A stretch of DNA of 64,000 nt, from NCBI RefSeq assembly GCF_058153355.1, contig NZ_CM177019.1, one strand, 5' to 3'. Under the pieces are notes generated by a model. It did no database searches and was not told where the DNA came from. It saw only the letters and a list, made by a program, of their open reading frames with translations. The translations under genes were made by a program, and so were the position numbers. Positions 1,688-34,697 of the stretch are shown here, one piece after another. How positions within the stretch are numbered: position 1 is the first letter of the stretch; each line of letters opens with the position of its first letter.

Positions 1688-1763
1688 TCCTCTGTAGTTC
1701 AGTCGGTAGAACGGCGGACTGTTAATCCGTATGTCACTGGTTCGAGTCCAGTCAGAGGAGCCA
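1688..1763 (+). tRNA. asnW: tRNA-Asn (GUU)
   Basis: 76-nt sequence TCCTCTGTAGTTCAGTCGGTAGAACGGCGGACTGTTAATCCGTATGTCACTGGTTCGAGTCCAGTCAGAGGAGCCA; symbol by synteny between yeeO and yeeN. Confidence 0.9.
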
Positions 1764-7899: not shown

Positions 7900-15888
<7,989 letters not shown>

Positions 15889-16196
15889 GCTTACCTTCCC
15901 TGAACGAGCTAACATAAATGCGCCCTTTCTAGCACAGCGAAAAAATATAAATCCTGATAGCAATATGATTGAAAATTAATAACTTTTCGTTAAGCAGTTT
16001 TGGGTGTGAGTTGCAAGAGGGGAGACTACTGAATAACTCAAGTTTTATAATCGAGGGGAAAATGGTGATGGTGTCCATAGCAAAACGCCCTCAACCATAA
16101 AGATCGAGGGCGCTTAAGATGTCAAAAACCCGCTATCCGTTAAAAAGCAATGCTCAACTAAGGTCAGTGACATTGCGCTAAAAAGCGAATTTTTAG

Positions 16197-16216
16197 AATT
16201 TGGCTCCTCTGACTGG
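16197..16216. repeat. island boundary direct repeat (duplicate of tRNA-Asn 3' end, AATTTGGCTCCTCTGACTGG)
   Basis: Identical 20-mer recurs at 33537-33556, overlapping the 3' end of the minus-strand tRNA-Asn. Confidence 0.75.
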
Positions 16217-16367
16217 GATCGCCGTAGCCATTAACTGGCTGATTGGTAAGCTAAACCTAAAAGTTGGGGTTGTCAAGACCACCAGAATGACCACCTCTTT
16301 ACTTTGAAACTAACGACATATTTTACGCTCATCCCTCAGTCAATCGTAAGCTAATAAACAACACCAA

Positions 16368-16748
16368 CTACGGTGCTGGTATTATAGTCTCTGCTCCAAA
16401 CCAATTTCCAAGTGTTGTCAGTGCCGCAGGTGACAAAGCTTGGGTGAAAAGGATCGCAAGGCGCTTTTGGGGTCTGGAACAAGCGACGTAAAACAAATTT
16501 CGGTTTCGTTCAAATGAGTCTTGCTTATCGACTGGAATCGTTTGGGCTCCAGCGAATTCCAACATTTCTCCGAAGTTATACTGGTTCCACCCACGCCCAA
16601 CAACAACCAGGACATTCTCAAATTCAGCACCTTTCACACCATGTTTAGTTTCGAATGGAGAATATCCATCAAGATAACGGCGAAGTGATCTGACCTCCGA
16701 ATAGGGAATATTTTTCAGCTTTTCAAGTTCTTTTAATCTTCGGGGCAT
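16368..16748 (-). CDS. UvrD/PcrA-like SF1 helicase, C-terminal segment
   Basis: Carries helicase motif V/VI-like sequences (KGAEFENVLVV, YVACSRPQKRL); same reading frame as 16794-18122, separated by a single TAA. Confidence 0.6.
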   Translation of the reverse strand: MPRRLKELEKLKNIPYSEVRSLRRYLDGYSPFETKHGVKGAEFENVLVVVGRGWNQYNFGEMLEFAGAQTIPVDKQDSFERNRNLFYVACSRPQKRLAILFTQALSPAALTTLGNWFGAETIIPAP

Positions 16749-16793
16749 TTCAACATCAGCCGTTCTGTCAAAATGGAGTAACTCCTGCTCAAA

Positions 16794-18122
16794 TTATTCA
16801 ACCTTATCTGGAAGTCTTGGCTTCCGTTGAGCACGGATGAACTCAATTACGTCGCCAATTGTACCAGTTTCGCGGAGAGCAAGAAGTTGCGTCATTACAT
16901 TGTGCCAACTCACCTTATCTGAATGTCTACGCAACAGTGGTGTAATACCGCCAAGCGCATTAAACATCTCTCCATACTTACGAGCGGTAAAGGCATCACA
17001 GGCGGGTTCCAGTTTGTCTACAAAAAAGGCTATATGTTCATGTTCCTTTTTCGTGAAGGATTCATTGTATTTAAACGCTGCCACTATATTTGAATAGCCC
17101 TGCTGATTGGCTAAAAGTCGATGGGTCAACATGAGAATTTTGGTGTGATTGGGAGAAAAGTCCCAACCATCCTGCTCCAACGTTGTTTTAACTCGTTCCA
17201 GAGTAGCCTGGCCTTCACATAATGGTAAATCACCACTCCAGTGCACGCCTTTTTGACGAACTCCTTGCCAATTGTTTGTATGGAAAACGCGTACTAAACC
17301 TGTAGCTTCGGGATCTTTAACACACTGCGGTAGCTCAGGTCTCATACGATTAAGGGCATCAACAATTATCTTGTCCGAACGAAAATTGGCTTCTTTACCT
17401 ATTTCAACCACGTCCTGATGTTCCAGCTTTCCACATCCACCACCATAGATTTTTTGCCAATGGTCGCCGAAAAAACCAAATAAAGGTGCTCTAGCTTGTC
17501 CAAGAAAATGCCGTTTAATTGCCTCAATCCAGTTTTTATCAGTGTCCTGGTACTCATCGACCAGAATGATTGGAAAGCGTTCTGCAATCACTCTACGGAA
17601 TTTTTCGTGCTCCATGAGTGAGACAGTTAAAGAAAGAACATCGTCATGATGAAGAGTTATACGATGGTCGCGAATAGAGCGATGTCCAAGATTATACTCA
17701 ACACTACGATTCCCAAGGCTTCCACCAACTTCTTCGAGCTTTTCTGTCCATGTTGGCATTGTCTCAATCAGTTCTCTCAACGGTTTTTGAAAGCTGCTTA
17801 TTAACGACCAACAGAACGCATGATTGGTATCACAAAAAACGATGGGGCTTCGATCTGTTCGCGCGACGATTTCATCCTTCGCCACGTTAGTAAAGGTGAT
17901 GCAGGCAATTTGCTGGCTACGTTTTTCAAATAAATCCTTATTTCGCTCAATCAAGAATCGAAGTGCCTTAATAAGGGAATACGTTTTACCCGCACCAGCG
18001 CCAGCTTCCAGCCGGAAGCTTCGTCCTTCACTGAGGCAAGCATACATAGATTCCAAAGCTCGCTGGCTAGCAGCTTCGGCGGGCGAATGGATCTCAGACA
18101 TCAGCGCTGGCTCCTTCTTCAA
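16794..18122 (-). CDS. UvrD/PcrA-like SF1 helicase, N-terminal segment
   Basis: Walker A GAGAGKTY, motif II ILVDEYQDT, motif III-like FFGDHWQKIY; start overlaps the upstream OLD-family gene by 29 nt. Confidence 0.7.
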   Translation of the reverse strand: MKKEPALMSEIHSPAEAASQRALESMYACLSEGRSFRLEAGAGAGKTYSLIKALRFLIERNKDLFEKRSQQIACITFTNVAKDEIVARTDRSPIVFCDTNHAFCWSLISSFQKPLRELIETMPTWTEKLEEVGGSLGNRSVEYNLGHRSIRDHRITLHHDDVLSLTVSLMEHEKFRRVIAERFPIILVDEYQDTDKNWIEAIKRHFLGQARAPLFGFFGDHWQKIYGGGCGKLEHQDVVEIGKEANFRSDKIIVDALNRMRPELPQCVKDPEATGLVRVFHTNNWQGVRQKGVHWSGDLPLCEGQATLERVKTTLEQDGWDFSPNHTKILMLTHRLLANQQGYSNIVAAFKYNESFTKKEHEHIAFFVDKLEPACDAFTARKYGEMFNALGGITPLLRRHSDKVSWHNVMTQLLALRETGTIGDVIEFIRAQRKPRLPDKVE

Positions 18123-20166
18123 TACTAGTTGTGGCTTCTACAACTTGCGCCAATACTGGATCTTGTGTCATAAGCTCATTGCTGCCAGCTAACCAGCGGA
18201 TTCCATCGACTATGTATTTGGGGGCGTTCCATTCTGTCTCTGTAATCGCGTATTTCAATGCAAATTCTGATTTTTTCCACTCAGACGCTTTATCACGGGC
18301 TTCTATTTCCAGTTCCTGAGAATTTCTCCCTACCAGCCCGAATAAAGCCGAATTTGCAAGGATAAATGCATCTTCGAATGTGCGTCCGCAGGGGCCATCT
18401 GTCACTTCTGCACATTGATAGGCAATACGATTTCCATTACGAGCTTTATCATCGTCACTCCTGGCAATCAAACCAGCTAATGTGAAAGGGGTATCTTCAG
18501 AGAACCATGCTTTCAAACAAGCATTACTGGAATATGTACCAAGATGAACAGCACATGCCTGACCTCCTGCTCTTTGGACTGCGTCCAGATCTGTTATGAT
18601 CAGACTCTGAAGCTCAAGAAACGCTAATAACTCGAAGAACAAATGAGCGTAAGCACCGCCGACTTCCATCACCGTTGCGTACTGGCTCGACAGCTTCGGT
18701 CTCTCTGGTTCGGCTGATTCTAGTTTTTTGATGATGACGGGAAGCAATAATCGCTCGCTTAACCCCTCGACGAGAATCGCTTTATCTGCGAAAAACAGAT
18801 CACAACGTGTCAACGTCATGTATTGATGAAGGAATTTTTTATCTTCAATTAGAATATGATTCAGCCCTTTACGCAGATCTTTAATTTTGGTTTTTCGGAC
18901 ACCTTCCTGAGTCCCCTGTGCTGGAGCCCCCAGAAAATAGCGAATACTCTCGAAACCAGCCGCATTGGCAATGTGAGACGAGTGTGTAGACACGACAAAT
19001 TGTACAGGCCAGGGTCTCCTGTCCTCAGTGCCATCCACCAGTTGTTGTGCAATTTTGGCAAGTTGACGAATAAAAACCTCCTGCATTTGTGGATGCAGAT
19101 GGGCTTCTGGTTCTTCAATGAATATCAGGTGTACACCCGGCTCAGTAACTTCAGCACAAAATGCTTTATAGAAACCAGCTAATTGCAAGAGAATAAATAT
19201 CAGATTACGTGTACCAAGACCGTTATATGACTCCGGTAATGCGATTCCGCTATAACCTGAATAGCGAACTTTCGTGAAGTTTGATAGCAACTTGCTAACA
19301 TCGAGCAATGTTTCAGTATGTAACTCCTGTCCTCCCAATCCTGGGTATCCAAAAGTTTCTAGAGCCGGAATCAGACTGTTGAGCTGGTTTCCGAAGTTTG
19401 TGTCAATTTGAGTCTGAATGTCCTGAACTGCACCTTTCAATGCATCAGCAATTTGTTTATCAGCAGCTCCCGCAGATGCCGAAGAGGCTGTTGCGAAAAG
19501 ATTTTCAACCGTTTTAGCCAGTACATCGGATTCTCGGGACGTCACATCATCAAGTCCTCGCTGAGCGTTGATAAAGCCCGATTTGACCAGACCGCGCAAT
19601 GCACTAGGTGGTAACTCGCGACGATTATCAGGATCGTTGGGATCTTCAGCCCATATTTTCACACAGAAATTATTAGGGATACGTTCTCGCAATATACGGA
19701 GGAAAGCGAGGCGGTCTTCTCTAGAAAGTGGCATTTCAGTCTGACTTTCGAGAAATTGTGTCAGATGGCCATCTTTCAATTCGTATCGGACTACTACCTG
19801 CGCTTCAGAACACGCGGGATCCAAATCGATAACAAAGGGACTCAATGGACCTAATTGAGGTTGTGCAGGGTCGTACTGGAATTTCAGTCGAAGTTCAATG
19901 GCGGGAATAAGTTCTCGAACGAGATGATCTTCCATGCCTTCCTTAAGTGCTTCCAGAACATCACAAAAACGGTCGTAGCAGGAACTGGAAAAGTCTTCAA
20001 GTTGGAAAGTAGCACTACCATCTGCTAAGAATCTGCGTATTATTTCTGAGAGTGATGTTTTTCCGCTGTTGTTTCGTCCAACAATGACGGTCGTCTGTTC
20101 CTCCAATACAAGCTCTGCATCAGCTAAAAGACGGAAGTTTTTAATTTCGACCTGATGAATGTGCAT
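18094..20166 (-). CDS. OLD-family ATP-dependent endonuclease (ABC ATPase plus TOPRIM), GajA-like
   Basis: 690 aa; Walker A GRNNSGKTS, Walker B/D-loop LIFIEEPEAHLHP, H-loop STHSSH, TOPRIM-like AILVEGLSE and ITDLD. Confidence 0.7.
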   Translation of the reverse strand: MHIHQVEIKNFRLLADAELVLEEQTTVIVGRNNSGKTSLSEIIRRFLADGSATFQLEDFSSSCYDRFCDVLEALKEGMEDHLVRELIPAIELRLKFQYDPAQPQLGPLSPFVIDLDPACSEAQVVVRYELKDGHLTQFLESQTEMPLSREDRLAFLRILRERIPNNFCVKIWAEDPNDPDNRRELPPSALRGLVKSGFINAQRGLDDVTSRESDVLAKTVENLFATASSASAGAADKQIADALKGAVQDIQTQIDTNFGNQLNSLIPALETFGYPGLGGQELHTETLLDVSKLLSNFTKVRYSGYSGIALPESYNGLGTRNLIFILLQLAGFYKAFCAEVTEPGVHLIFIEEPEAHLHPQMQEVFIRQLAKIAQQLVDGTEDRRPWPVQFVVSTHSSHIANAAGFESIRYFLGAPAQGTQEGVRKTKIKDLRKGLNHILIEDKKFLHQYMTLTRCDLFFADKAILVEGLSERLLLPVIIKKLESAEPERPKLSSQYATVMEVGGAYAHLFFELLAFLELQSLIITDLDAVQRAGGQACAVHLGTYSSNACLKAWFSEDTPFTLAGLIARSDDDKARNGNRIAYQCAEVTDGPCGRTFEDAFILANSALFGLVGRNSQELEIEARDKASEWKKSEFALKYAITETEWNAPKYIVDGIRWLAGSNELMTQDPVLAQVVEATTSIEEGASADV

Positions 20167-20303
20167 ATGTCCCTCATGATCTATTTATAGTCTATCGATA
20201 AATCTGATGTTATTGCTCTACCTGTAATTTTCATTCTTACGATTGTTTTGCAATGCAAAATATACCTCAGGCCATATTTATTCCTGAGGTATGTTTTGGT
20301 ATC

Positions 20304-21824
20304 TCACTCGGTCAAAGAGGCCTCACGAACATCATCCGGTTGAGGTTGGCACTCTTTCCATCGTCGAATAAGCGTTGCTACACAGGGATTACCCGCCAGT
20401 TGATTCATTCTGACCCAGTCAACATCCACTAATCCAGCCAGAAGTTCAGGATTTAGTTCCCCTTGTAATGGGTGCCACTGGCGAATACTGGGCTGGCGCT
20501 GAATTTGAGGTTGAAGGGGAGCCAAACTCCCGACGATAACGTAATTTTGTTCTGGATCATGCCAGAGTCGTGTAATGCCAGGTATGTTTTTCAACCAGTT
20601 TCGAGGATCACCTAAAGGTAAATCAAAAACACGAGAGAGTAATTTATTCCATGACGCTATTAATGACGAACTGGCTTTCTTTGCCAATTTTTTCTCACCT
20701 GCCAGGAGTGCATTTTTTCTTTCTGGCCATTTGGAAAAAATATAACTTTTTAAAATATCGTAGGTAACATTAAGTTCATTATTGTAATAATACTCACGCA
20801 AAGCACAATTCCACAACTCGCACAGCAAGTCTAGTTCACGCATGAGTGTATTTTTATTGGTATCTGATAATTCACCTTCCTCATTAAGTTGCGCTATATA
20901 AAAAGACAGTATCTTTGTATCTGGTAAGAGCCAGTGGTTTAGTGAGAACTGCTGACTTTGAGTATCAAGAACAGTCATTAATGCATCTAAATTCTCAGGG
21001 ATCATATTAGGGGTGTCGTATTTCGGATCCTGAAGAAGAATGGATATTTCTTCCATTCTATGAATAATTATTGTCAATCTCTGAGCAAATCTGGTTAATT
21101 TATCTTCACTGCTGCCAAAACCTTGCGCTATTGATTCAGGCCGATAAGTATAAGGCCATTTTTTATTTAAGAGAGTAAGAAGAGCCTCGACAGAGGTATC
21201 AAACAGTTTCAGCCTTTCATCGCAGGCTTTAACTAAATCCGGGCAAGAAGGATTAAAAGGTAAAATTACTGGGCGGTCTTGTTCAGCGGTGAATAAATAT
21301 CCTTCGGTGATAACCAATAGGTCATGAGTCAGTAAGTCTTTCTGTTCTGTCAGGCTTGTACTGATTCTTGTTTCTTTGCAAAGTAAAAGATGCTTCAACG
21401 CAAGTTCTTTGTACGCAACTTCGGTATTACGCGCCAATGCATCAAGACAGGTCTTTTTCTCAAGATCTTGAATGGCATAGTCGTAATAGCAAGAATCTAT
21501 CGCAGGGATGAGTCGGGTAGTCCCATCGGGAGTATCCTGCTCAATCAATAAATTATCAACAACAGAATCACCACTAAGATCAAACGGATTAACGTTGATA
21601 TGCTGGCACGCAATTTTAGTTCTTAGATTCTGAGTTAACGGATAGCGGTCATCAATTATACCACGGATCTGATCTAACAAAACAAGTATGCATATAGAGC
21701 TGTCTTTTTCCAATTTTTCAAATGATGAGGGTTCTGAATCCGGTAATAATTCCAGCTGTACATCAGGATACTTTTTGTTCAACACCTTTTGTATCTGCGC
21801 ACTTCCCCGTGAAACCCGGGTCAT
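20304..21824 (-). CDS. hypothetical protein, no recognisable motif; 5' end lies in IS66-derived sequence
   Basis: Long ORF (track 20304-22004); only in-frame Met codons are inside the IS66 tnpC remnant, so the native N-terminus is probably lost. Confidence 0.4.
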
Positions 21825-22843
21825 CCAACCGGAAGAAGAATGCTGCCCGGCCTGTGGTGGCGGGCTCAGTCCTCTGGGATGTGATGTGTCAGAACAACTG
21901 GAGCTTATCAGCAGCGCCTTTAAGGTTATCGAAACACAACGTCCGAAACTGGCCTGTTGCCGGTGCGACCATATCGTGCAGGCTCCGGTGCCTTCAAAAC
22001 CCATTGCACGCAGTTATGCCGGAGCGGGGCTTCTGGCCCATGTTGTCGCTGGAAAATATGCAGACCATCTGCCGTTATACCGCCAGTCAGAAATATACCG
22101 TCGTCAGGGCGTGGAGCTGAGCCGTGCCACACTGGGGCGCTGGACAGGTGCTGTTGCTGAACTGCTGGAACCGCTGTATGACATCCTGCGCCAGTATGTG
22201 CTGATGCCCGGTAAAGTCCATGCCGATGATATCCCCGTTCCGGTCCAGGAGCCGGGCAGCGGTAAAACAAGGACTGCCCGGCTGTGGGTCTACGTTCGTG
22301 ATGACCGTAACGCCGGTTCGGAAATGCCTCCGGCGGTCTGGTTCGCGTACAGCCCGGACCGGAAAGGTATCCATCCACAGAATCATCTGGCCGGTTACAG
22401 CGGAGTGCTTCAGGCCGATGCTTACGGTGGTTACCGGGCGTTGTACGAATCCGGCAGAATAACGGAAGCCGCATGTATGGCTCATGCCCGGAGAAAAATC
22501 CACGATGTGCATGCAAGAGTGCCCACCGACATCACCACGGAAGCCCTGCAGCGTATCGGTGAACTGTATGCCATCGAGGCAGAGGTCCGGGGCTGTTCAG
22601 CAGAACAGCGTCTGGCGGCAAGAAAAGCCAGAGCCGCGCCACTGATGCAGTCACTGTATGACTGGATACAGCAACAGATGAAAACACTGTCGCGTCACTC
22701 GGACACGGCAAAAGCGTTCGCATACCTGCTGAAACAGTGGGATGCACTGAACGTGTACTGCAGTAATGGCTGGGTGGAAATCGACAACAACATCGCAGAG
22801 AACGCCTTACGGGGAGTGGCCGTAGGCCGGAAAAACTGGCTCT

Positions 22844-24667
22844 GTGTGTCACGAAGGAGTACTTATGGCAACAATGTGAAAATTGCAGCATAAGTTATCC
22901 ATGCTCTGAGGTGGGTGGAGGTGGGCCCTCCGGTCAGGGTTTACAGGAGCACTGACCAAACGACCCGGTGCTGCTTCATTCTAAGGAATGAGGTGGTGAG
23001 CGACTCGGGAAAAGGCAGAGATCTACTGTCACGTGGGGTTCGGGAAGCTGAACGAAAGTAAACTGTCCGATGAAGCATCGAAATCTTAGATGATGTCAAA
23101 ATGGGGCCGTACAGCCGTCCCCTGATAAGCGCAGAAGACACCTGCTTACTGACTGCGCGGCATCCGGTGTGAAGGCAGCAGGATCCCGGGCCAGACCATC
23201 TCAGGGAACGTGAGAACCTGTTTCCGGCACGTATCGGGAAACAGGGGCGGACCCATTCGTAGTAGTGATGAAAGATCTGTAATGGGTCTGGAGCGAAGGG
23301 ATGGGGATCACATTCATTGCAGAAGACACAACCCAAAAGGGGATGACGTAACTGATGCAACGAAAATCATTTGAAATACCAAAAGCACTGGTCTGGGCAT
23401 CATATCTGGATGTGCGTCGCAACAAGGGAGCCCCCGGATGCGACGGGCAGACTTTGAAAATGTTCGACCAGCAACGTGATGGCAATCTATACAAGATCTG
23501 GAACCGGCTATGTTCGGGAACATGGTTTCCGCCACCAGTGCTGGAAAAACGGATCCCGAAGTCGAATGGCAAGGAACGCATTCTGGGGATCCCAACAGTA
23601 TCCGATCGAATTGCTCAGGGAGCGATAAAACTTTTCATGGAAGAAAAGCTTGACCCGATTTTCCATGCTGATTCATATGGTTACCGACCAGGCAAATCAG
23701 CTCATGACGCTCTGAAACAATGTGCCATCCGGTGCTGGCGTTATAGCTGGATACTGGAAGTGGACATCAGTGCGTTTTTCGACCATGTGAGACATGATCT
23801 GGTGCTCAAAGCTCTGGAACACCACGGGATGCCTAAATGGGTCATCCTGTACTGTCGACGCTGGATGGAAGCGCCAATGCAGAGTTGTGAAAATGGAGAA
23901 TTAATAACCCGAACACGAGGCACTCCGCAGGGCGGGGTCATTAGTCCACTACTTGCTAACTTGTTCCTTCACTATGCATTTGATTTGTGGATGGAAAGAG
24001 AATATCGGGGGGTACCGTTTGAGAGGTACGCTGACGATATTGTAGTACATTGTTCACGAATGAGTGATGCAACAAGGCTGAAGAACAGGTTATCGGAGCG
24101 CTTCTCGGAAGTCGGGCTGGTCCTGAATGCAGGGAAAACGAATATCGCCTACATTGACACGTTTAAAAGGAGAAACGTCGCAACGAGTTTCACCTTTCTC
24201 GGATATGACTTCAAAGTGCGTACGCTGAAGAATTTCAAAGGCGAACTGTACCGAAAATGCATGCCGGGTGCGTCAAATGCAGCAATGCGCAAAATAACAG
24301 AAACAATCAAGAAGTGGCGTATACATCGCTCAACAGCTGAGAGTTTGCTGGATTTTGCGAGGCGCTACAATGCGATAGTGAGAGGCTGGATCGAGTACTA
24401 CGGAAAGTTCTGGTCCAGAAATTTCAACTATCGACTGTGGAGTGCAATGCAGTCACGTCTGCTCAAGTGGATGCAGTCTAAATACAGACTTTCGAACCGG
24501 AAGGCTCAGCGAAAGCTGACGCTGGTAAGGAAGGAGTATCCGAAGCTATTTGTTCACTGGTATTTACTACGTGCATCAAATGAGTGATCAAGAGCCGTAT
24601 GACGCGAGAGTGTCACGTACGGTTCCGTGAGCAGCCGGGGAGTGAAATTCTCTCCGGCTGACTCGAC
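22844..24667 (+). mobile_element. group II intron (~1.8 kb) with intron-encoded reverse transcriptase
   Basis: 5' GTGTG start; domain V-like GAGCCGTATGACGCGAGAGTGTCACGTACGGTTC near 3' end; joining the flanks restores the TnpC frame (KNWL-FAGSDSGG). Confidence 0.7.
23355..24587 (+). CDS. group II intron reverse transcriptase/maturase
   Basis: 410 aa with RT motifs including YADD and a C-terminal maturase-like region. Confidence 0.8.
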   Translation: MQRKSFEIPKALVWASYLDVRRNKGAPGCDGQTLKMFDQQRDGNLYKIWNRLCSGTWFPPPVLEKRIPKSNGKERILGIPTVSDRIAQGAIKLFMEEKLDPIFHADSYGYRPGKSAHDALKQCAIRCWRYSWILEVDISAFFDHVRHDLVLKALEHHGMPKWVILYCRRWMEAPMQSCENGELITRTRGTPQGGVISPLLANLFLHYAFDLWMEREYRGVPFERYADDIVVHCSRMSDATRLKNRLSERFSEVGLVLNAGKTNIAYIDTFKRRNVATSFTFLGYDFKVRTLKNFKGELYRKCMPGASNAAMRKITETIKKWRIHRSTAESLLDFARRYNAIVRGWIEYYGKFWSRNFNYRLWSAMQSRLLKWMQSKYRLSNRKAQRKLTLVRKEYPKLFVHWYLLRASNE

Positions 24668-24852
24668 TCGCAGGTTCCGACAGCGGTGGCGAACATGCGG
24701 CGGTGTTGTACTCGCTGATCGGCACATGCCGTCTGAACAATGTGGGGCCAGAAAAATGGCTGCGTTACGTCATTGAGCATATCCAGGACTGGCCGGCAAA
24801 CCGGGTACGCGATCTGTTGCCCTGGAAAGTTGATCTGAGCTCTCAGTAAATA

Positions 24853-26796
24853 TCAATACGGTTCTGGCGAGCCGCTTACGTTTAATCGGGAAATCTCATA
24901 TTTTCGGTTCATCATTAATGGCAGAAGGAAGCGTTGATGCTGTTGACGAGAAATTTCACCAGCACGGAGCAGTTTTTCTAGGTTGCGTAACTGGAAACCC
25001 GCATGCGCCATATCATCATTGTTCTCTGTATTGGCCTGAAAAGCGGAAAAGTAATAATGCCGTGATTCCAGCAAATATAAACAGGTCAGATCCATATTTT
25101 TGCCAGATTCAGGCAGGCTGAAATCCAGATTCACACCATTCGTCGCAGAGGCGGTCTGAGTCAGCACAATGACAATACGCCGGGAGGCAAATGCGGCCTG
25201 ATAAGCATCACTAAAGCCCTTTTTCTTCTGACATTCTGCGGTTAACAGACAAATCAGCGCAGGCTCATTATGTATGCTCACTGGGATAAACACATCAGCA
25301 AAATTTTTTAGTAGAGGATCATCAGATAAAGGTTGTTCCATTTTTAACCATGCGAGGTATTCTCTACTTTGTGTTGCTATTGTAGTGGTAAGCCATTTTC
25401 TTAAATAGGCTATGGAATTCACGAAAGCAAGATGCCCCCGGTGTTGAGGTCTTTTTCCCGCAAGATCCAATACATTAAGCAATTTTAGCAGTATATTTTT
25501 TCGATATTCTGATTCGAAATCTGATGAGGGGTCATCGCCATTCTGGAAAAAATCGGGGGCTAGCGAAGCGAGCAGATCAACACAATGCGGGTTATTCTTT
25601 ATGCTATTGAAATCTTGAATCTCAGCATTCAGTTGTGTGTTTCTGATATTTTCTTTGCTGTTATTGATCTCTTCAATAGCTAAATACTGCAACTGGAAAT
25701 CATCAGCCGTCTGGACATAAGGTATCGGTTCTTTAAACCACTCGACAGGTCGTTTTTCAAAAGTTGTTCCCAGAAAACTTTGTGTAACAGCAGGGTTGCG
25801 TGCTTCTGCAATATAACGAAGAGCTGAATTAATCCACCGGACATCGAAGTGATTACAGGCTCTTTCAATATATGACGTAGCCGACAGTGCAAAGACAAGA
25901 TTACGACTGGCGAGAGAAAGCAGCAGACCTTCTGCCGTCGTGGGCAGAAAGGCACGTTTGATCTGTATCCGTAACGGATCGATATCCGTATCTGAGACAT
26001 TCTGTTTCAGCAACCAATTGGTCAAGCCAAAAATACTGGCATGAGTATTTGGCAAAATATTACTTTTCCTTAATTCCCGTAGTTCCGGCAGGTCAGTACG
26101 CGGTAACAAAAATCGGGACATATTGGGCAGGGTTGAGCCGTAGTATGAAGGCCTGTAATCATTAACGGGGTCGAACAGAAGTCGGGTTAACTTTTTAATG
26201 TATTCATACGCTTCATCTTCACTTGCAGTCAGGTCGGTCAACATTAGGCTAAACTGTCGAATGAATTTTTCCATCAAGCGTAAAAAATCACTGATGTCGA
26301 TAGTCTGATCGCTATCCTGAAGCGGAGAGTCTGGCCTGATAATTTCGTATCCATGTTCCGCTTTCCGCATAATAAGCCGTTCACTGGTCACCAGTTGATC
26401 GGAACGGAATAAATAATGCTCACCAAAGGGTTTATTATCCAGATATTGCTGAAGAGGAATAACCAGCGATCTGGCATGTGTTAAATCAGCATGTTTTTCT
26501 GTTAATGCACTATCCAGATCATTAATAAATTTTTCTAGACGTTCACGGATCATAGGTGCAGGTTCCATTTCAACATACTGCATACGTTGTAGTAATCTGC
26601 GTCCCCCGTCGAGCAACTGACCCAGACACTCAGGTGGTTCCTGAACCCATTGCGCCTGTGCCAGATACTCTTGTAATACCTCAGACTGGTAATCAAATTC
26701 ATCGATGAAAATGATGTAATTACGCAGCTCTTTGCTGGACATTTTTACTTTGCGACGCCCATCGTAAAACGATGAAACCATCTTTTGAGTCGTCAT
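24853..26796 (-). CDS. hypothetical large protein, downstream part of a split P-loop NTPase; Walker-B-like IIFIDEFD near N-terminus
   Basis: 647-aa ORF; stop codon lies inside the IS66 terminal repeat; starts 2 nt after the stop of 26799-27572 in another frame. Confidence 0.45.
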   Translation of the reverse strand: MTTQKMVSSFYDGRRKVKMSSKELRNYIIFIDEFDYQSEVLQEYLAQAQWVQEPPECLGQLLDGGRRLLQRMQYVEMEPAPMIRERLEKFINDLDSALTEKHADLTHARSLVIPLQQYLDNKPFGEHYLFRSDQLVTSERLIMRKAEHGYEIIRPDSPLQDSDQTIDISDFLRLMEKFIRQFSLMLTDLTASEDEAYEYIKKLTRLLFDPVNDYRPSYYGSTLPNMSRFLLPRTDLPELRELRKSNILPNTHASIFGLTNWLLKQNVSDTDIDPLRIQIKRAFLPTTAEGLLLSLASRNLVFALSATSYIERACNHFDVRWINSALRYIAEARNPAVTQSFLGTTFEKRPVEWFKEPIPYVQTADDFQLQYLAIEEINNSKENIRNTQLNAEIQDFNSIKNNPHCVDLLASLAPDFFQNGDDPSSDFESEYRKNILLKLLNVLDLAGKRPQHRGHLAFVNSIAYLRKWLTTTIATQSREYLAWLKMEQPLSDDPLLKNFADVFIPVSIHNEPALICLLTAECQKKKGFSDAYQAAFASRRIVIVLTQTASATNGVNLDFSLPESGKNMDLTCLYLLESRHYYFSAFQANTENNDDMAHAGFQLRNLEKLLRAGEISRQQHQRFLLPLMMNRKYEISRLNVSGSPEPY

Positions 26797-26798
26797 GA

Positions 26799-27572
26799 TC
26801 AGCAGGTGTTGCTTTTCGTCACGCCAGGCAATGGCGGGCAGAATGCGCCTGACCCAGACGTGGCGACGGAAATCTGCAACTCGTTGCCTGGCTTGGCTGC
26901 CTGCGTGAGTTCATGTTCTTCGCCATATTTTTCTTTTTGTTTCTTGGCTTCTTTTTCCAGCAATTTGATATTCTGAATCAGAGTTATCTCCACCGCTGCG
27001 CATGATTTGATTAATGACTCTTTCTCACTGGCGATGGCCGTCTGAAAACGCGTCGGATATCCTTTCAGCGATTTGTTAATATGCAGTATGTTTTTGCAAT
27101 TTCTACGCAATTTGTCGGCGATATCCTGAATGGCAAACAAATTTCTGTCTTCCAGGATATTGATGGAGTCAAATGGATCGGGAAGTGAGTCTGCGGAAAT
27201 ATTATTCTCATGAGGCAAGGGGGTGGCCTCGATGGCAGAAACGATCTGTTCATCTTGTGCATAGAGCACGCTGACGGTGAATGGTTCCCCGTTACTGTCT
27301 TTATGCGCTGCCGTTTTCTCATAAATGTCGTGCAAAATATTCCAGCGATGGGTAACCAGAATGGCTTGAGAGCCTGATTTTTTTATCGTCTCCAGCGCCG
27401 GGAGAGCGTTATCGGCATAGCCAGAGCGGTAGAGTGAGCTGGTTTTTCCGCTACCCGTAGGCCCCTGAAGCTGACAAAATCCTGCGATACGACGGGATGT
27501 TTTGGATTTTTTTGCCTGAGAAAGGGTGTATTCAATAACGGCATTGTAGGAACGTATTAAAGGGGCACTCAC
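26799..27572 (-). CDS. P-loop NTPase N-terminal segment (Walker A GPTGSGKTS)
   Basis: 257-aa ORF with Walker A near residue 40; low-complexity C-terminal tail suggests a frameshift into the next ORF. Confidence 0.45.
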   Translation of the reverse strand: MSAPLIRSYNAVIEYTLSQAKKSKTSRRIAGFCQLQGPTGSGKTSSLYRSGYADNALPALETIKKSGSQAILVTHRWNILHDIYEKTAAHKDSNGEPFTVSVLYAQDEQIVSAIEATPLPHENNISADSLPDPFDSINILEDRNLFAIQDIADKLRRNCKNILHINKSLKGYPTRFQTAIASEKESLIKSCAAVEITLIQNIKLLEKEAKKQKEKYGEEHELTQAAKPGNELQISVATSGSGAFCPPLPGVTKSNTC

Positions 27573-27885
27573 ATTTCACCTCATCCGTGTCAGGTTATCG
27601 AAGAGTAGAATTTCAGCAAATTCATGTTACACCGAACGGGTATCATTTCAATGTTTAATAATAATTTCCCCTTATAAAACAACGCTTATAATACATTCGC
27701 AGGTCAGATGATTTATCGGTGTGTTATTTGTTTGAATTTGGTGTTGTGGTTTTCTTTTTTTAACAATCTTCGATCTTCCTTCCACGACTTCCCCTTGCCG
27801 TTTTCAACCGAAAGCGGTATCTTTCACTTGCACCTGCAAAATCAGGTGCCGGGATTGGAACCCCGAAATGTAACCATACTGGCGA

Positions 27886-27910
27886 CACGTGACGCGTCTG
27901 CGTCTTTTTT
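27886..27910 (+). terminator. hairpin plus T-run (GACGCGTCTGCGTC-TTTTTTT)
   Basis: Short GC stem followed by seven T on the plus strand. Confidence 0.35.
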
Positions 27911-28075
27911 TATGTCGCGCGCTTAGCTACACCAAAATTATGGTGGGCTGGGCGGGGGCACCGTAAGGTGCGCCGGTTCCAGTATGGCCGGTAGTTCCAA
28001 CCTCGTTCAGTCCACCACCCATGAGATTGGAACCTCTGGTGGTGGTTTTCAAACCACATACTGGAGGCTGCCTTT

Positions 28076-33540: not shown

Positions 33541-33616
33541 TGGCTCCTCTGACTGGACTCGAACCAGTGACATACGGATTAACAGTCCGCCGTTCTACCG
33601 ACTGAACTACAGAGGA
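33541..33616 (-). tRNA. asnT: tRNA-Asn (GUU), island integration target
   Basis: Exact reverse complement of the 76-nt tRNA-Asn at 1688-1763; symbol by synteny with yeeJ and mtfA. Confidence 0.9.
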
Positions 33617-34607: not shown

Positions 34608-34697
34608 GGAGAGATGCCGGAGCGGCTGAACGGACCGGTCTCGAAAACCGGAGTGGGGGCAACTCCACCGGGGGTTCAAATCCCCCTCTCTCCGCCA
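34608..34697 (+). tRNA. serU: tRNA-Ser (CGA)
   Basis: 90-nt GGAGAGATGCCGGAGCGGCTGAACGGACCGGTCTCGAAAACCGG...TCTCCGCCA with long variable arm and CGA anticodon. Confidence 0.85.

Follow-up and report, generated by a model that had tools for sequence, protein, structure and literature searches.

DdmDE, known from Vibrio cholerae VPI-2 and from Lactobacillus casei, is a two-gene system of plasmid elimination; for both species, guide-directed recruitment followed by ATP-driven degradation has been described (bioRxiv 10.1101/2024.05.10.593530; PMC11795196). ApsAB is an antiplasmid system of Escherichia coli sequence type 38 (ST38) (PMC11096173, Nat Commun 2024). Gabija defence, in turn, is reported to need both of its proteins: GajA nicks DNA on nucleotide depletion, and GajB senses DNA ends (bioRxiv 10.1101/2023.05.02.539174). 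This report concerns a locus in which genes resembling both kinds of system lie side by side, at positions 16368-27572 of a 64,000-nucleotide stretch (the window) of contig NZ_CM177019.1 in RefSeq assembly GCF_058153355.1. The locus is probably a cargo cassette of about 10 kb in a tRNA-Asn-integrated island of an Escherichia chromosome, consisting of a divergent DdmDE-like pair (genes A and B) and a Gabija pair (gajA and gajB) that form two independent tandem modules, decayed in this copy.

The program-made list of open reading frames (ORFs) places minus-strand ORFs at 26799-27572, 24853-26796, 20304-22004, 18094-20166, 16794-18122, and 16368-16748. This agrees with a preliminary description, made from the letters of the window, that had noted co-oriented minus-strand gene pieces throughout. 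At about 21.8-24.9 kb the run is broken by a block richer in G+C, whose ORFs lie on the plus strand. One of them, at 21688-22893, belongs to an IS66 transposase fragment, and another, at 23355-24587, encodes a group II intron reverse transcriptase. In megablast searches of complete E. coli genomes, no record covered at least 80% of the region. Outside the central block, however, 19 of these genomes (including LF82, NRG 857C, and PSUO2) are 99% identical to it.

The intact reference is the locus of E. coli LF82 (L001), a block of four genes encoding A (1300 residues), B (818 residues), GajA (690 residues), and GajB (577 residues). Genes A and B are separated by 3 bp; 137 bp then precede gajA, which gajB overlaps by 8 bp. 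The block sits in an island at a tRNA-Asn gene, adjoining nac/cbl. In the LF82 record, A and B are each labelled "hypothetical protein", GajA "ATP-dependent nuclease", and GajB "UvrD-helicase domain-containing protein". BLAST aligns window 16190-21803 with L001 8001-13615 (99.1% identity) and window 24879-27864 with L001 15789-18769 (98.9% identity), and the lesions in the window copy were defined against this intact locus by BLAST and MAFFT. The comparison alters the gene count. ORFs 26799-27572 and 24853-26796 are one gene, A, because a 5-bp duplication breaks its frame. The P-loop NTPase and the unknown protein, previously taken for the products of separate genes, are therefore two pieces of frameshifted A. 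What truly comes second in the locus is the gene left as a truncated ORF at 20304-21803.

The standard libraries give little guidance on the product of gene A: it has no match in NCBIfam and no significant match in PADLOC, even at E<=10, a threshold at which the sole match for A and B together is PbeC at 0.096. Likewise, neither A nor B, searched as a single sequence, found anything meaningful among PDB sequences. The A family is small (64 clusters at 90% identity among 5.8 billion proteins), and all its members are unnamed. Strictly or almost strictly conserved helicase elements emerge from an alignment of 32-33 members: Walker A (GPTGxGK43); Walker B (D289-E290-x-D292); motif III (S562-A563-T564); and motif VI (Q914-Q915-x-x-G918-R919-x-E921-R922). 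The C-terminal PD-(D/E)xK signature (E1170, D1173, and D1184-A-K1186) is invariant in the family alignment, and this nuclease stretch aligns with "IDFKNW" of DdmD (9ix4). (Numbering in alignments A1 and A2, whose references lack the start codon, runs one residue below true; numbering in alignment A3 is true.)

The family profile carries the comparison further. It matches L. casei DdmD (9ix4) among PDB sequences at E = 2e-7, through four collinear stretches that include the helicase and nuclease motifs. An AlphaFold2 model of residues 1-1200 of the 1300 (predicted local distance difference test score, pLDDT, 75) has DdmD as each of its top 20 matches in the PDB (E from 4e-28 to 4e-21), followed by DinG at 1e-6. 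On profile and predicted structure, A is thus a superfamily 2 (SF2) helicase fused to a C-terminal PD-(D/E)xK nuclease, a distant homologue of DdmD type. Large ATPases of the Dnd/Dpt, BREX, Druantia, and Zorya types were also considered for A; PADLOC gave them no support.

The product of gene B has no match in Pfam (no PIWI, PAZ, or MID domain) or in NCBIfam, and none of significance in PADLOC, again at E<=10. In the same set of 5.8 billion proteins its family forms 68 clusters at the 90% level, none of them named, and the family profile finds just 78 matches among 1.84 billion representative proteins. Used alone against PDB sequences, this profile yields chance matches only. The connection to DdmE comes instead through intermediates. 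Distant matches of the B profile, about 700 residues long, were aligned with one another (alignment A4); this alignment matches L. casei DdmE at 4.6e-11 and V. cholerae DdmE at 1.9e-6, and is joined to the B family by hhalign with a probability of 100% (E = 1.7e-44, 680 columns). Two of the intermediate relatives, searched as single sequences against the PDB, gave nothing; only the alignment reached DdmE. The PADLOC model for DdmE (PDLC04131) matches the intermediate relatives weakly and B not at all.

Structure prediction gives the same answer. The AlphaFold2 model of B (pLDDT 84.6; predicted template-modelling score, pTM, 0.81) was compared with the PDB by Foldseek. The top six matches are DdmE, with E from 1e-18 to 7e-11 and target-normalised template-modelling (TM) scores of about 0.5-0.6. 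The next matches are Argonautes and PIWI proteins, at about 1e-8 and with TM scores of about 0.25-0.3. DdmE itself has no catalytic PIWI tetrad, and it uses DNA guides. As judged from profiles and the model, B is an Argonaute-like, DdmE-like protein and a distant homologue.

Because their motifs, profile links, and predicted structures agree, A-B can be regarded as a deeply divergent DdmDE-family pair. The preliminary description had placed the two upstream genes in no recognised system. This remains accurate insofar as the standard defence hidden Markov model (HMM) sets miss both; the suggestion of an undescribed system gives way to distant homology with DdmD and DdmE. Some points count against this assignment. 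Identity of A and B to the solved DdmD and DdmE is only 10-16%; PADLOC has a DdmE model, yet neither A nor B has a significant PADLOC match; and the putative anti-plasmid function of this clade is argued from likeness to DdmDE.

The same folds might instead serve DNA repair or maintenance of the island, and A-B would then not be a defence system. Such a role would fit with the failure of every defence HMM library tried to detect A-B, and with a function that is predicted from homology. It is nevertheless very unlikely: A-B is rare and patchily distributed; it lies consistently near restriction-modification (R-M), BREX, Shango, Lamassu-like, Gabija, or toxin-antitoxin genes; the fold matches are specific to DdmD and DdmE, and not to repair helicases; and anti-plasmid activity has been shown for the related ApsAB and DdmDE (PMC11096173).

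The second pair is more readily named. LF82 GajA matches PADLOC PDLC00063 at 2e-290 over residues 1-672 (full-length), and intact LF82 GajB matches PDLC00113 at 4e-267, also full-length. Homologues of the two proteins carry the expected Pfam domains: AAA_15/AAA_21 with an OLD-like TOPRIM domain for GajA, and UvrD/UvrD_C for GajB. On these matches the OLD/UvrD pair is canonical Gabija, and the resemblance to Gabija that had been pointed out earlier is borne out. The PADLOC search proposed at the same time for each protein identified GajA and GajB, and returned nothing significant for A and B. GajA of this type is common: it forms over 4700 clusters at E<=1e-50, versus about 65 for A or B. Moreover, Cupriavidus neocaledonicus carries an 82%-identical GajA together with a 577-residue GajB as a stand-alone pair, without A-B.

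Are the four genes one system or two? In all 26 non-redundant loci genes A and B are adjacent and co-oriented, with A first, and they either overlap or are separated by 3-40 bp. These loci cover Gammaproteobacteria (including Alteromonas, Vibrio, Shewanella, Colwellia, and Photorhabdus), cyanobacteria, and a spirochaete. The pair is rare, with 19 loci among about 100,000 species genomes. GajAB follows A-B only in one clade of Enterobacterales, to which E. coli SC418 also belongs. There a search for intact homologous loci, as had been suggested, recovered the conserved four-gene arrangement in E. coli, E. whittamii, Salmonella, Serratia, Erwinia, and Klebsiella. In 19 of the 26 loci GajAB is missing, and one more has an AAA_15 fragment only. 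Elsewhere the neighbours of A-B are a type III R-M system with a WYL regulator, Shango SngABC, BREX, a Lamassu-like pair, or housekeeping genes, and some loci have no such neighbour at all.

Among 5426 complete E. coli genomes, A-B was found in 25, of which 19 have the whole Gabija part. Four of the 25 have a truncated gajAB (in EC28, the one inspected, the cut lies beside an IS3 element); a fifth has lost Gabija wholly, also beside IS3; and in a divergent copy gajA and gajB are fragmented. All six of these strains with damaged or lost Gabija retain intact A-B. The occurrence of A-B without Gabija, the stand-alone Gabija, and the losses within E. coli therefore favour two autonomous modules that travel together.

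The opposing proposal, and the one made in the preliminary description, is a single larger system of four genes. In its developed form, A-B and Gabija would be interdependent in Enterobacterales: nicks made by GajA, or ends sensed by GajB, might feed guides to the Argonaute-like protein, or products of DdmD-like degradation might activate Gabija. Several observations fit this proposal and weigh against independent modules. Gene order is kept throughout the six enterobacterial groups named above, and the four genes co-diverge, with identities to LF82 of 83-95% for A, 71-92% for B, 77-94% for GajA, and 75-94% for GajB. The four genes also occur together at more than one chromosomal site, which leaves functional cooperation of A-B and Gabija some, if low, probability. 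One promoter-like site before A and one terminator-like site after gajB (see below) would fit a single long transcript as well. Finally, a cyanobacterial locus has an AAA_15 fragment directly 3' of B.

Several findings argue against interdependence. Every A-B locus outside the Enterobacterales clade lacks Gabija and several adjoin other defence systems; a close relative of this GajAB stands alone in Cupriavidus; and E. coli strains keep A-B intact after losing Gabija beside IS3. Furthermore, a conserved hairpin lies between the two pairs. Several of the enterobacterial loci have a common island backbone, with a PemK/MazF toxin and an integrase, and because this backbone is shared, one ancestral juxtaposition on a mobile island suffices to explain the linkage. 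A single integrated system is therefore unlikely. Equally unlikely is the extended proposal of a cooperating plasmid- and phage-defence cassette in Enterobacterales and, separately, of A-B as a third DdmDE/ApsAB branch, not recognised before and found in clinically relevant E. coli (LF82), in Salmonella, and in Klebsiella. The window locus is a decayed example of known system types, and no new four-gene system is needed to account for it.

The 137-bp spacer between the pairs contains a conserved stable hairpin directly 3' of the gene B stop (20262-20292, minus strand), identified from an alignment of seven loci and from folding. Its predicted free energy lies between -18 and -21 kcal/mol, and its z-score between -4 and -5.6. 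The Serratia and Salmonella sequences contain compensatory changes; the hairpin is also present at loci L025 and L037, and is absent in Erwinia and Klebsiella. Bases upstream of the gajA ribosome-binding site are conserved in the same seven-locus alignment. The hairpin may be a terminator, or an RNA-stabilising element, that divides the two modules.

A consensus scan, by itself, proposed the remaining signals. A weak sigma-70-like promoter match (27624-27651, minus strand; 9 of 12 positions) lies some 50 bp before the start codon of gene A. A terminator-like hairpin with a T-run (16359-16378, minus strand) overlaps the gajB stop at the end of the four-gene block. The scan found no promoter in the spacer between B and gajA. 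It gave fewer promoter-like sites than did shuffled sequence, and is uninformative alone.

In an intact copy, by analogy with DdmDE, B would bind short DNA guides and find complementary invading (plasmid) DNA, and would then recruit A. Once loaded on the displaced strand, A would move along it at the expense of ATP and break the DNA down. Gabija would act separately against phage, with GajA as a nucleotide-sensing nicking nuclease and GajB as a UvrD-like helicase. The two pairs presumably came to lie side by side in a single lineage of mobile islands, which carried them jointly through Enterobacterales, each remaining its own unit. In the window copy, the IS66/intron block has replaced the 3' third of A together with the 5' 40% of B.

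The damage to the window copy can be described gene by gene. Its largest element, at 21804-24878 on the plus strand, consists of part of an IS66-family tnpC gene and, within it, a group II intron with the reverse transcriptase/maturase ORF at 23355-24587, as defined by Rfam matches, by a match to E. coli 536, and by the LF82 junctions. Rfam places group II intron matches on the plus strand at 22917-23033 (RF01999) and 24590-24667 (RF00029). E. coli 536 has a structure of the same make-up, an IS66 tnpC fragment into which an ltrA intron is inserted, and the block shares 97% identity with it. The 3075 bp of this block substitute for 2173 bp of LF82 sequence, encoding residues ~898-1300 of A and residues 1-321 of B. 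All three of the lesions reported earlier (the IS66/intron block, the frame break, and the in-frame stop) are thus present, except that the supposed insertion is a replacement. By itself it inactivates both A and B.

Gene A suffered a second lesion. Relative to LF82, a 5-bp tandem duplication (TGGCT on the plus strand) at 26889-26893 frameshifts this minus-strand gene at about codon 227, and is the sole indel of its segment. The 5' fragment (26799-27572, minus strand) comprises residues 1 to ~226, with the Walker A sequence GPTGSGKT, and ends in an out-of-frame tail that runs into a premature stop. The middle part (24879-26888, minus strand), assigned from the LF82 BLAST and the family alignment, comprises residues ~228-897, among them DEFD of Walker B and SAT of motif III. 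Lost with the C-terminus are helicase motif VI and the PD-(D/E)xK nuclease domain. Of gene B there remains a 3' remnant, residues 322-818 of 818 by BLAST to LF82 (20304-21803, minus strand). ORF 20304-22004 is accordingly a chimera, joining the final 497 codons of B to a read-through into the IS66 fragment.

The Gabija genes fared somewhat differently. On PADLOC and LF82 comparison, gajA (18094-20166, minus strand) is intact and encodes a 690-residue OLD-family ATPase-TOPRIM nuclease, with nine substitutions relative to LF82 and no stop. By contrast, codon comparison with LF82 shows that gajB (16368-18101, minus strand; 577 codons), which encodes a UvrD-type helicase, carries the nonsense mutation K436* (AAA to TAA at 16794-16796). 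The gajB segment has no indel, and the last 142 residues of GajB are lost. The description of the locus as decaying is well founded: A, B, and gajB are all broken relative to LF82, and the cassette is dead apart from gajA. GajA is the only one of the four proteins that, from the sequence, could be made.

Some of this damage could in principle be artefactual: were the 5-bp duplication and the TAA codon sequencing or assembly errors, the locus would be less damaged than it appears. The window copy is known from a single assembly, and its exact configuration occurs in no complete E. coli RefSeq genome. Artefact is highly implausible all the same. The 3-kb replacement, which cost the locus 2173 bp, is a structural change and would be enough to inactivate both A and B; a 5-bp tandem duplication is typical of slippage rather than of a homopolymer miscall; and the same cassette decays independently in other strains.

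Other copies extend the catalogue of variation. In Klebsiella quasipneumoniae (L028 13905-16354), gene B is divided among three ORFs of 452, 210, and 131 residues, and is intact in a sister assembly (L027); the split gene is further decay of the A-B-Gabija cassette. LF82 and its relatives have an ISEc1 (ISAs1-like) insertion upstream of gene A (L001 18913-20049) that is lacking in the window (at about 27864). Independent IS activity is therefore evident around the cassette in different strains, from ISEc1, IS3, and IS66.

A recurrent third gene beside A-B was sought. Proteins of about 300 residues are encoded downstream in several loci, and they formed no group in an all-against-all BLAST. In Alteromonas and Shewanella gaetbuli (L004 12454-18228 and L022 12391-18216), A-B is followed by an LmuA-like nuclease of 291 residues and a 1632-residue protein, or by a 1941-residue fusion of the two. 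The nuclease matches PADLOC LmuA at 3e-9, and the large partner has no PADLOC match; together they are a possible Lamassu-like neighbour of A-B. In a cyanobacterial metagenome-assembled genome (L003 12629-13045), a 138-residue AAA_15/SMC_N fragment, corresponding to the N-terminus of an OLD-like ATPase, lies directly 3' of B, where a DDE transposase interrupts it. The OLD family may thus have joined A-B independently a second time, or the placement may be chance. E. coli GajA did not match the fragment by tblastn, and two other cyanobacterial loci are without one.

The surroundings of the cassette are those of a probable integrative element. Just upstream of gene A, on the plus strand of the window, Rfam matches at gathering score identify an isrK Hfq-binding RNA (27830-27910) and a C4 antisense RNA (27936-28022). 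The homologous LF82 island contains ash-family, AlpA-like helix-turn-helix, and integrase genes. Together, these RNAs and genes suggest a degenerate P4-like satellite or integrative element with defence cargo. Two tRNA-Asn genes in opposite orientation, at 1688-1763 (plus strand) and 33541-33616 (minus strand), bracket about 32 kb, with the defence island abutting the second; a tRNA-Ser(cga) gene lies at 34608-34697. Directly 3' of gajB in the window is an ORF of 2687 residues (7900-15963, minus strand). The same flank in E. coli SC418 has an "Ig-like domain-containing protein" (a giant adhesin-like gene), and in LF82 has phosphotransferase system (PTS)/hxlB sugar genes. The left flank of the cassette therefore varies between strains.

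Both system kinds found here are known; the A-B clade is missed by PADLOC 2.0, by NCBIfam, and, for B, by Pfam. A pair of "hypothetical proteins" in LF82, Salmonella, Klebsiella, Serratia, and further bacteria can now be read as a DdmDE-type module of Argonaute-like and helicase-nuclease proteins. Since both DdmDE and ApsAB influence which plasmids are carried and how resistance genes spread, an unannotated third clade in Enterobacterales is relevant to defence catalogues and to the prediction of plasmid compatibility.

How closely, then, does each part of the locus correspond to described systems? The Gabija part does so in full-length PADLOC matches for both gajA and gajB, in domain content (an OLD-type ATPase plus TOPRIM, and a UvrD helicase), and in the 8-bp overlap, as in a single operon. 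It differs in that the window gajB stops at codon 436 of 577, and in that this Gabija lineage is fixed 3' of the DdmDE-like pair in Enterobacterales. Long prokaryotic Argonautes are a more distant comparison, since the B model also matches Argonaute/PIWI structures (about 1e-8), with TM scores well below those of its DdmE matches.

ApsAB resembles A-B in combining an SF2 helicase/PD-(D/E)xK nuclease with an Argonaute-like protein, and in residing on E. coli genomic islands. In addition, the B family and its DdmE-like relatives share a conserved "D-x-Y ... Q-x-x-I-N-x-N" that by eye is reminiscent of the MID-like Y..K..QG reported for ApsB. ApsA, however, has 1569 residues, with an N-terminal extension of about 180, and the paper makes no mention of Gabija (PMC11096173). 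The A and B profiles showed no detectable similarity to ST38 ApsA and ApsB in the available sequence, limited to the N-terminal 400-444 residues (Supplementary Data 7), nor did they match two partial entries of about 1300 residues. Length-based look-ups returned only unrelated entries of about 1300 residues, and neither LF82-type accessions nor the sequence motifs were found in the accessible supplementary tables.

The strongest likeness is to DdmDE: two genes in the same order, helicase-nuclease first and Argonaute-like protein second; SF2 motifs and a C-terminal PD-(D/E)xK site in A, as in DdmD, with DdmD the best match of the A model; and DdmE as the best match of the B model, joined to B by profile searches as well. 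The differences are those of a divergent branch. A has 1300 residues versus about 1190, and B has 818 versus about 690-715; identity is about 10-16%; and PADLOC, whose DdmE model finds the intermediate relatives, matches neither A nor B. In comparisons made with partial ApsA and ApsB, the A-B clade is closer by sequence to DdmDE than to ST38 ApsAB, and embodies the same concept.

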